Origin: a virus
Lineage: Duplodnaviria; Heunggongvirae; Uroviricota; Caudoviricetes
Virus record (IMG/VR): IMGVR_UViG_2534682108_000013
Location: 1 to 36,393 of that record
DNA: 36,393 nt
Reading direction: 5' to 3' (one strand)
A model generated the notes under the pieces. The model was not told where the DNA came from and did not search any database. It was given only the letters and a program-made list of their open reading frames with translations. Of the stretch, positions 17,175 to 20,227 are shown piece after piece (position 1 is the stretch's first letter; every line of letters starts with the position of its first letter). The translations under genes and the position numbers were made by a program.

Positions 17175-18479
17175 CTAGGCGGCCTGTTTCAGTGGAGATT
17201 GTTCGAAAGGAATATCAGGGAAAACCGCATTATGGACTTCGCGAAGCAGTTTAGCTTTTTCGGCTGTACTGTTTTTACGCAAGTCTTCAAGCGGGGTGAG
17301 ATTCAGTTGAACTGTGTAGATATCCCCACCCTCAATCGGTGGAAGGTTTTCAAGGCGTCGCACATCATTACGCGACATCCATCCGTTTTGCAGTGCGGTG
17401 GTGTAGTACGCCGCACGCCCTGCGCTGTCGGCACGGAGCAGGCCTTCTACTGAGAACTCCGCAAATAAATCCTCATCTCCGTTAAGCAGACAGCGTGAAA
17501 TCTCCTGCTCAATATTGACCAGCATTGGGCGTAGTGTATTAGTCAGGAACAGGAGGTTCATCCCTTCAACACTCGATGCCCAACTGCTCTGCTTCGTCGT
17601 GTGTCCTACCATAAAGGGAGGCACCCGGAACCAGCGGCAGATTTCCTCGATGCTGAATGAGCGTGATTCCAGCATCTGCGCATCTTCAGGATTCAGGGTT
17701 ATGCCCTGATAGGACATATCCCCCTCCAGCACCATCACTTTTCCGGCATTTTTAGAGCCGACGAAGCGGTTAAGGTTTTCACGGTTTTTCTGGCGCTGCT
17801 CTTTGGTCAGAAGATTCTTTGACAGGAAAAATCCGGATGTCTGAATACCGTTTTCGAAAATTTTCGCTGCGGACTCTTCAACCGCCATCGCCGCACCAAA
17901 CACGTCACGCCCGGTACGCATCGGCATCATCCCGCAGACACCATCAAGGCCAAAGCCCCGGATGTGCATCATGTTTTTAACCGGAATGATGCGCGCTATC
18001 CCCTTCTCAGTGTAGGTATAACGCAGTTCGCCGCTGTCCAGCCGCTCAACCTTCATGCACTGAGGCAGCAAAGGCACCAGTGAAACCAGTTTGGTACCAA
18101 TCAACTTTTTTTCTACGTAGGCATTACCCCGAAGGCAGATACTGGCAACCACCATCAGCATAAAGCGCGACGGCGTCATTTCACTGTTGGGGCGGCGACA
18201 TAACACCTGATAAGCAGGGTGATTAAGCGCCAGCTTGCGGGAACCATCAGCCGCCCGTTCGTATACCTTCATCGGCAGGGTTGAAACGGATTCACTCAGC
18301 AGACGTACACAGGCCCAGACAGAAGCCAGTGCCAGCGCTTTTTCTGCTGTAACGACTTTTCCGCTGCTACTGGTGCCATACCACTCCTGCCAAAAGGCTG
18401 CGTCATTCAGCCCAATTGTTTCGCCAAGCCAGTTAACAATCGCGGTTTTGATGCGGCCCGGCCGTTTTTTTTCCTTCAT
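17175..18479 (-). CDS. Portal protein (HK97 family)
   Basis: 434 aa; immediately downstream of terminase large subunit. Confidence 0.85.
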   Translation of the reverse strand: MKEKKRPGRIKTAIVNWLGETIGLNDAAFWQEWYGTSSSGKVVTAEKALALASVWACVRLLSESVSTLPMKVYERAADGSRKLALNHPAYQVLCRRPNSEMTPSRFMLMVVASICLRGNAYVEKKLIGTKLVSLVPLLPQCMKVERLDSGELRYTYTEKGIARIIPVKNMMHIRGFGLDGVCGMMPMRTGRDVFGAAMAVEESAAKIFENGIQTSGFFLSKNLLTKEQRQKNRENLNRFVGSKNAGKVMVLEGDMSYQGITLNPEDAQMLESRSFSIEEICRWFRVPPFMVGHTTKQSSWASSVEGMNLLFLTNTLRPMLVNIEQEISRCLLNGDEDLFAEFSVEGLLRADSAGRAAYYTTALQNGWMSRNDVRRLENLPPIEGGDIYTVQLNLTPLEDLRKNSTAEKAKLLREVHNAVFPDIPFEQSPLKQAA

Positions 18480-19171
18480 CAGATACCTACCATGATCGGA
18501 TCATCAAAAAAATCATCAGGGTCGCCAGTCTCTACAAGAACCGCATCCTCCGCCGCACCAATAGCCATAGCTGAAGCCACCACGCCATCAATACGGCCAG
18601 TGCTCTTCTTCTTGGCAAAGATACGGTTGTCTTTCTGATCGGCTTCCAGAACAGCAGATGCCGCATTCCAGCGCAGACAGGGGTTAGTGCGGATAATCAG
18701 TTCGCCACTGTTAAGGTGCTCTTCAAACAACTCAATGGATCGCGGCATCCACAACCCAGACTCCTGAGCCTTGTAAAAACCCTGTCCGTGCGGAACCAGT
18801 TCAACATCAACGGACTGGTTCGCCAGTTCAACTTCGAGATATTTAATTCGGTACTGGTCGCAGGCTATACATTTGATATTGTGCTTTTGCGTTAACTCCC
18901 CGATACGATCGGCCACAAACCCGTAATTAACAGCCTTACCCGGTGGTGCGTGAATAAATCCATTACGCAGCCAGGCGTCATAGGGAACATGGTCAGTTTT
19001 GGCGCGATCGAGCAGTGTGTCTTTTGGCGTCCAGAATTCGACCATTAACTTTTTAAATTTTGGAAAGTAAAGTGCAAGCGAGGTAAGGTCGCGGGAGCCG
19101 GAAAGGTCCAGTCCGCCATAACATTCTTCACCTGTCAGTTCTTCAGGGTCGAAATCCTGCTCGCATTTCAT
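18479..19171 (-). CDS. Terminase large subunit, C-terminal nuclease part (separated from the ATPase part by an in-frame TAG)
   Basis: Same reading frame as 19172..20227; ATG at 19169..19171 directly follows the TAG at 19172..19174. Confidence 0.7.
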   Translation of the reverse strand: MKCEQDFDPEELTGEECYGGLDLSGSRDLTSLALYFPKFKKLMVEFWTPKDTLLDRAKTDHVPYDAWLRNGFIHAPPGKAVNYGFVADRIGELTQKHNIKCIACDQYRIKYLEVELANQSVDVELVPHGQGFYKAQESGLWMPRSIELFEEHLNSGELIIRTNPCLRWNAASAVLEADQKDNRIFAKKKSTGRIDGVVASAMAIGAAEDAVLVETGDPDDFFDDPIMVGI

Positions 19172-20227
19172 CTACGTATCGCTGTCCACCCACGGGTCAG
19201 CAGATTCCACCCATTGGCAGAAATTAAGGCGGCGCACAATACTCTCTTTCGACGGCATCCCGCGCGCCTGCGTCACCTGCTCACGCAAATATTTCTCGGT
19301 GAAGGTGTGCCCCAGTGACGGGTTAGCCTTACCCCAGCAGGATTCGTCTTTAAACGGGTCGTCCCCTTCATCAAGCGAGCATATGAAGCTGAAAAAGCTG
19401 TCATCTTCCAGATCACCGGAAGCAACTTTTCGTCCGTACTCGTGATACTCAAAACAAACACTGGTTTTATCGTGGCCGCTGTTGGTAATAAGGAACATCA
19501 ACGCCTGTCGACGCCCCTTCGTGCCAGCGCGCATCATCTCAACAACCTGATTGCTTTTATGTTCGTGAACTTCATCAATCAGAGCGCAATGTGGGCGGGG
19601 GCCTGACTGGCCATCATCAGAACTGATTGGCCGGAAAAAAGAACCAGTCTGAACAAACGCCAGATTCCATTCTTTTCCAGTACCACCTGATTTATCAATT
19701 CTCTGAGACAGAGCAGGAGACTGATCCACCATCGCCACAGCATCCCGGAACAGGATCATCGCCTGGTCTTTTTTTGTGGCGGCGGCATACACTTCAGCGC
19801 GTGGTTCTTTGTCGGCGACCAGACAATATAATCCGACGCCACCAGCGAGAGGGGATTTACCGGACCCCTTCCCGGACTCCACATAGACCATGCGGAAGCG
19901 TCGGTATCCATCACTGGCCTTCCAGCCAAAAATAGAACCAACAATAAAGGACTGCCACGGCAATAGAATAAAGGGCAAACCTTCATGCTCACCGCCGTTG
20001 AGCTTTAAAACTTTTGAAAAAAAATCAATGCCCCGTTGCGCGGATTTAATGTCCCAGGTAAGTCCTCGCGCCGGTCCATTTTCCAGATCGCGGAGATGAC
20101 GGGCGCAGGCGTTACGGATATCCGGCCCGGCAAGAATCTTCCCGGTTGTGACATCCAGCGCATACTGCGTGGCCGGGTCAACCGAAGAACTGGTTGAGCG
20201 GGTCTTCTTCTTTTTCTCCACCATCAA
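19172..20227 (-). CDS. Terminase large subunit, N-terminal ATPase part
   Basis: Walker A-like GKGSGKS; ends at an amber codon in frame with the nuclease part. Confidence 0.75.
   Translation of the reverse strand: MMVEKKKKTRSTSSSVDPATQYALDVTTGKILAGPDIRNACARHLRDLENGPARGLTWDIKSAQRGIDFFSKVLKLNGGEHEGLPFILLPWQSFIVGSIFGWKASDGYRRFRMVYVESGKGSGKSPLAGGVGLYCLVADKEPRAEVYAAATKKDQAMILFRDAVAMVDQSPALSQRIDKSGGTGKEWNLAFVQTGSFFRPISSDDGQSGPRPHCALIDEVHEHKSNQVVEMMRAGTKGRRQALMFLITNSGHDKTSVCFEYHEYGRKVASGDLEDDSFFSFICSLDEGDDPFKDESCWGKANPSLGHTFTEKYLREQVTQARGMPSKESIVRRLNFCQWVESADPWVDSDT

Follow-up and report, generated by a model that had tools for sequence, protein, structure and literature searches.

A premature amber codon in the large terminase subunit gene of an HK97-like Escherichia coli prophage

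The IMG/VR virus record IMGVR_UViG_2534682108_000013 (Caudoviricetes) comprises 36,393 nucleotides, which were analysed here at full length and are referred to as the window. It contains an HK97-like prophage that is seated in an Escherichia coli O157:H16-type chromosome, beside yfdC. Its genes follow the order HNH endonuclease, small terminase subunit (TerS), large terminase subunit (TerL), portal, ClpP-type protease and capsid, and its tail is contractile. The gene for the large subunit, terL, is located on the minus strand and is interrupted by a single in-frame amber codon.

The interrupted terL gene and its intact counterpart

The locus consists of three features:

19175..20224, minus strand: terL 5' part, 350 codons from the annotated ATG; ATPase domain and lid/linker region up to Thr350
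19172..19174, minus strand: premature amber codon TAG; TGG (Trp351) changed to TAG by a coding-strand G-to-A substitution, which is C to T at 19173 on the plus strand
18479..19171, minus strand: terL 3' part, opening with the ordinary Met352 codon; 230 codons and a stop codon; RNase H-like nuclease core

The minus strand around the break reads GAC AGC GAT ACG TAG ATG AAA TGC, with the TAG at 19174..19172 and an ATG at 19171..19169. The upstream open reading frame (ORF), 19172..20227, comprises 351 amino acids when counted from a TTG codon and 350 when counted from the annotated ATG at 20224, and the downstream ORF, 18479..19171, comprises 230 amino acids. According to the list of ORFs, both share one frame and the TAG is their sole separator. 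This agrees with an earlier interpretation of the DNA letters (the sequence-only reading), which had described an ATPase part and a nuclease part in one frame with a TAG in between. In the upstream piece, Pfam identifies TerL_ATPase (PF03354) at residues 90-264 (E=4e-28, 98.7 bits, cut-off 23.7) and model positions 3-77 of TerL_nuclease (PF20441; 33.5 bits, cut-off 24); the downstream piece continues with model positions 85-282 of TerL_nuclease (E=2e-18, 67.2 bits, same cut-off). Because the matches to PF03354 and PF20441 occur in this order and are split across both ORFs, the two ORFs are consecutive pieces of one TerL. The domain labels of the sequence-only reading hold as descriptions of the two pieces, but by the Pfam model the stop falls inside the 'nuclease' family PF20441.

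A megablast search of the window against 5,426 complete E. coli genomes yielded one near-identical copy, in the O157:H16 strain Res13-Lact-PEA12-26 (NZ_CP062876.1). The whole 36-kb window is co-linear with the prophage of this strain at 99.97-99.99% identity. In the relative, terL encodes one uninterrupted protein of 581 amino acids, annotated as "terminase large subunit" (WP_195686555.1), and the upstream piece in the window is identical to its residues 1-350. Over the entire gene, 1748 of 1749 nucleotides are the same, and the one difference is TGG (Trp351) in the relative versus TAG in the window.

Alignment to intact TerL homologues, a check that had been proposed for finding the expected residue, identified it as tryptophan. 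Trp is present at position 351 in 25 of 25 homologues down to 68% identity and in all 80 TerL loci from species-representative genomes (46-89% identity). Diverse 50%-cluster representatives (37-58% identity) have it in 95 of 104 cases, and at least seven of the nine exceptions have L, F or V instead. Trp351 is also aligned to a tryptophan in HK97 TerL (PDB 6Z6D). Because this residue is conserved across all homologue sets and in HK97 TerL, TGG represents the ancestral state and TAG the derived one.

The stop separates the two catalytic centres of the protein, since the Walker motifs are located upstream and the three catalytic aspartates downstream of it. Walker A (GKGSGKS, residues 118-124) and Walker B (D217-E218) align with the Walker A lysine and the Walker B glutamate of HK97 TerL, and D373, D456 and D546 (full-length numbering) align with HK97 D302, D388 and D471 (PDB 6Z6D); the roles of these HK97 residues are described in PMC9410871. 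All of these motifs and residues are invariant in the 25-homologue alignment, and D373 is kept in 103 of the 104 diverse representatives. In HK97 TerL, the ATPase lid is connected to the nuclease through a short linker plus an additional beta-strand (PMC9410871), and Trp351 is found near this structural junction, about 22 residues before D373. An AlphaFold model calculated from a 24-sequence alignment had a mean predicted local distance difference test score (pLDDT) of 61.5 and a predicted template modelling score (pTM) of 0.45. The ATPase domain was poorly modelled and only the nuclease half, from approximately residue 345, was confident; the model was used solely for placing Trp351, which it positions inside a predicted helix spanning residues 348-354. 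Going by this model, the stop removes a conserved aromatic residue and cuts a structured element, not a free linker.

Both Pfam models in their proper order, the Walker motifs and the three catalytic aspartates are found at the locus, but not in a single uninterrupted frame. As far as can be judged from these sequence features, the window copy is a pseudogene and as such a non-functional member of the HK97-type TerL family.

A sequencing or assembly error, with TGG as the true codon and an intact terL, had been among the explanations offered by the sequence-only reading. Only one base separates the window from the intact allele, and draft assemblies do contain single-base errors. Against this stands the recurrence of the allele in separate public records. 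The exact 350- and 230-amino acid products are found in GCA_000304135.2 (E. coli 3006, scaffold JH953811.1) and in GCA_002466935.1 (contig NJLL01000058.1), and both truncated products were also sourced from Logan assemblies of raw runs. In the regions shared with the window, the loci of both NCBI assemblies match it at 100% identity, and yet the two contigs differ in structure (114,658 versus 21,729 bases). Moreover, the amber site ACGTAGATG is outside any homopolymer, and the remaining lineage-specific changes co-occur with the terL amber in the public contigs. An error is therefore very unlikely, and was rejected because the same allele recurs in separately assembled records. In GenBank, the 230-amino acid piece is listed as EKI38110.1, 'phage Terminase family protein [Escherichia coli 3006]', and the intact TerL protein is present on 16 contigs. 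By its coordinates, the window lies within JH953811.1, about 59 bases short of the end of this scaffold, and it probably derives from strain 3006 or one of its clones. On the basis of these records, the amber allele is common to a small clonal group of E. coli assemblies.

A natural split of the terminase at this position was also considered. In the 80 species-representative TerL loci, neither a stop nor a gene boundary occurs at residue 351; a gene split or domain boundary at this site would, according to the sequence-only reading, have spoken against a mutation. Almost all of the best 120 cluster representatives are 573-583 amino acids long, and, judged from the match table, the diverse library contains no group of short representatives that start or end at residue 351; the few shorter ones include P0251 (378 amino acids) and P0275 (528 amino acids). 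A natural split or a domain-boundary gene arrangement was rejected, as no homologue is split at the site and the nearest relative has TGG.

Two side observations concern TerL homologues with broken matches. Many distant homologues are about 740-1400 amino acids long (P0118, P0157, P0172 and others) and match in two or more stretches, with breaks at residues ~122-123, in the Walker A region, or at ~287, which were taken as inserted elements. P0118 has a LAGLIDADG domain (PF14528), and these long proteins are probably intein-containing terminases. In two of the 80 loci, L031 (9376-11248, Proteus alimentorum) and L052 (10001-11724, Proteus sp. FME41), the TerL match consists of two adjoining pieces. 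This looks like a frame break elsewhere in terL, and if so, broken prophage terL genes would not be rare.

The evidence for an intact allele one base away (TGG to TAG) and for a family-conserved tryptophan thus favours the nonsense mutation that the sequence-only reading had listed as one of its options. We consider it very probable that the terL amber codon is a recent nonsense mutation in a decaying prophage, and that terL is a fresh pseudogene.

Companion lesions in the same prophage

Two further genes are disrupted in the window:

29633..29875, minus strand: cro-like regulator gene with W66*, TGG to TAG at 29678-29680 (single-nucleotide polymorphism, SNP, at 29679)
25830..26799, minus strand: primase gene (zinc ribbon and DUF7146/Toprim), split by a 2-bp (GC) deletion at ~26611

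The second Trp-to-amber change, which had been missed by the sequence-only reading, was read directly in the sequence CCA GAT GAT TAG GAA AAG ATT TGG CCA GAA CTT. It deletes the last 15 residues of an 80-amino acid protein, including a conserved IWPEL motif; Trp66 and the IWPEL motif that follows it are conserved in distant homologues. The cro-like gene adjoins a gene for a LexA/CI-type repressor, and its 65-amino acid product is found on seven public contigs, in the same public assemblies as the terL amber. This second change strengthens the interpretation of decay or domestication. The primase frameshift had been recognised before, and comparison with the intact relative confirms it as a 2-bp deletion: the public contigs encode a 73-amino acid zinc-ribbon piece and a 262-amino acid DUF7146/Toprim piece, versus a single 323-amino acid protein in the relative.

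In total, the window differs from the relative at seven positions: five SNPs (4498, 15062, 19173, 25319 and 29679), the 2-bp deletion at ~26611 and five fewer copies of a 9-bp repeat at 14818-14901. Three of these seven differences disrupt genes (terL W351*, cro-like W66* and the primase frameshift), and all contigs shown carry these three lesions together. Of the other SNPs, one is synonymous in the baseplate J gene (4498, G101), one is a missense change in NinG (E172G) and one is intergenic. At 4498, 19173 and 29679, the minus (coding) strand has A in the window and G in the relative, and outgroups indicate that both nonsense changes are derived in the window; the events are too few to call a mutational signature.

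The repeat at 14818-14901 consists of perfect 9-bp tandem copies of TGCCTGCTC in a small gene directly downstream of the major capsid gene. It is present in 9.3 copies in the window versus ~14.3 in the relative (45 bp more). Provided that this frame applies, the minus strand would encode Glu-Gln-Ala here. Contig NJLL01000058.1 breaks exactly at this repeat.

In enterobacterial prophages, nonsense mutations, small frameshifts and insertion sequence (IS) insertions accumulate in lytic-cycle genes, while accessory genes remain, and prophage pseudogenes of this kind are common. The break in terL is ordinary prophage decay, a known phenomenon that involves no new genetic mechanism.

Readthrough, re-initiation and predicted consequences

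Three observations weigh against the interpretation of terL as a fresh pseudogene in a decaying prophage. Both nonsense mutations are UAG, and neither is UGA or UAA, and a suppressor would tolerate both. The terL stop is close to the lid/nuclease junction and directly followed by an AUG; a low level of both separate domains may be made. Finally, the enrichment of nonsense changes rests on four coding SNPs, and two of the five SNPs could have changed in either direction.

The first observation would fit readthrough of the amber codon, whether through an amber-suppressor tRNA, host-borne or co-resident, or through near-cognate decoding, such that functional full-length TerL is made. TGG can become either TAG or TGA by one G-to-A change; two ambers from two TGG changes have a chance probability of about 1 in 4, which gives the pattern little weight. 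No tRNA gene was found in the window, and TAG is the normal stop of 6 of the 51 genes in the prophage of the relative. Because TAG terminates these genes, the genetic code is standard; on this ground and for want of a tRNA gene in the window, stop-codon reassignment or a phage suppressor tRNA was rejected. Efficient amber suppressors are rare among natural E. coli isolates, and the co-occurring primase frameshift is beyond rescue by suppression. Taken together, these points make readthrough to a functional TerL highly doubtful.

The second observation would be compatible with a working two-piece terminase, in which termination at UAG is followed by re-initiation at the adjacent AUG, and separate ATPase and nuclease proteins cooperate. 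Stop and start are directly adjacent (UAGAUG), the break is near the HK97 TerL lid/nuclease junction and the confident nuclease block of the AlphaFold model begins only a few residues before it. Yet the split arrangement is one SNP old and is present in no other homologue examined, and the break removes the conserved Trp351 and cuts the predicted helix. Met352 varies across the family, with D, E, A and R most frequent at this position among the diverse representatives, and the adjacent ATG is thus an ordinary sense codon of the intact gene. GGUGGA, the Shine-Dalgarno-like sequence closest to the AUG, lies too far upstream of it, with its end at a distance of 13 nt. In addition, for P74-26 TerL, the nuclease domain on its own showed neither DNA binding nor DNA cleavage (PMC5389665), which speaks against activity of the nuclease piece even if it were produced. 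Re-initiation at the adjacent ATG, which the sequence-only reading had suggested, therefore finds no start signal at a useful distance, and a functional two-piece terminase is extremely improbable.

As a nonsense mutation, the single G-to-A transition at Trp351 would stop translation after Thr350 and produce a 350-residue ATPase fragment that lacks the nuclease active site, while little or none of the 230-residue nuclease remainder would be synthesised. Because the packaging motor requires ATPase and nuclease in one chain, the prophage is predicted to have lost the capacity for cutting and packaging its own DNA. The mutation may also affect the next gene:

17175..18479, minus strand: portal gene (Pfam Phage_portal); its ATG overlaps the terL stop codon (ATCTGATG)

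Owing to this overlap, terL and portal are probably coupled in translation. Termination 693 nt before this junction probably abolishes the coupling, and its loss may lower portal expression.

The third observation concerns the cause of inactivation. Stop-creating changes make up 2.6-5.2% of the possible substitutions in these genes, and for four coding SNPs, the probability that two or more are nonsense is approximately 0.004-0.015. This excess suggests selection for inactivation, on very few events. The element is being inactivated while its accessory genes stay intact; those kept include a RelA/SpoT-type candidate defence gene and UmuD-like and DinI-like genes. That inactivation was selected instead of arising by drift, with rapid selection disarming a lethal prophage and preserving its accessory genes, is a tentative possibility to which we give the smaller share of our confidence. 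A variant, in which the host lineage carries an amber suppressor and both ambers are conditional, is less likely. The RelA/SpoT-domain gene is located in the early/accessory region (31788-32903, plus strand) and encodes an intact protein of 371 amino acids that matches the PADLOC candidate PDC-S33 (E=1e-92).

With terL read as a fresh pseudogene, the two ORFs are better annotated as one terL pseudogene than as two "terminase family" proteins, and assessments of prophage inducibility or transduction risk should treat the element of E. coli 3006-like O157:H16 strains as defective. No literature on strain 3006 or O157:H16 was found. The sequences are already present in public databases and the finding has little importance beyond annotation. 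Nonetheless, the lineage provides a compact and clear case of early prophage decay, which could be used in a population study of how fast lysogens disarm their prophages.

Packaging module, prophage setting and comparison with known systems

Upstream of terL, the packaging module contains two further genes:

20178..20642, minus strand: small terminase subunit, P27 family (Pfam PF05119, E=3e-23), also annotated in the relative; its end overlaps the terL start
20763..21101, minus strand: HNH endonuclease (Pfam PF01844), upstream of terS; also annotated in the relative

An HNH gene beside terS and terL is typical of HK97-like cos packaging modules, and the same order is annotated in the closest phages. 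The closest TerL protein clusters are from Citrobacter (98-99% identity). This type of prophage is rare in E. coli, with a single occurrence (≥99% identity) among 5,426 complete genomes, and an IS66 element of the ISCro1 family is present in the relative's prophage copy. These observations hint at a recent exchange with Citrobacter.

The absence of an integrase gene, which the sequence-only reading had counted as a sign of domestication, is explained by the edge of the window. In the relative, a tyrosine integrase gene and tRNA-Arg are located ~7-8 kb past the window end, beyond IS3 and IS66 (ISCro1) insertions, and this IS3 is where the public contigs of the amber lineage end. A gene for a DndB-like/DGQHR-domain protein (35581-36393, plus strand) is cut by the window end, and in the relative an IS3 is inserted there.

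The closest known system is the prophage of Res13-Lact-PEA12-26 (argW/yfdC), which has the same neighbouring genes and chromosomal site as the window prophage and differs from it by TGG at Trp351, intact cro-like and primase genes and five additional copies of the 9-bp repeat. Among the temperate phages, Salmonella phage SW-37, Klebsiella phage ST13-OXA48phi12.2 and Pantoea phage AH07 share an HNH-TerS-TerL-portal-Clp protease block that is 75-79% identical at the nucleotide level, and have a single 'terminase large subunit' where this is annotated.

HK97 gp2 (PDB 6Z6D), the archetype of a cos-type TerL that acts with an HNH endonuclease, belongs to the same family (PF03354 and PF20441), and the window TerL matches it with E=7e-50 across residues 63-577. 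Both have the Walker A and B motifs, the three catalytic aspartates, a tryptophan at the mutated site and an HNH gene beside the terminase genes. In contrast to HK97 gp2, to which its identity is low, the window copy is broken by a stop, and cos-type cleavage is suggested here by family membership and gene order.

When compared with the general decay of enterobacterial prophages, the window prophage is the same in kind, and is distinguished only by its recency, with seven differences in 36 kb.

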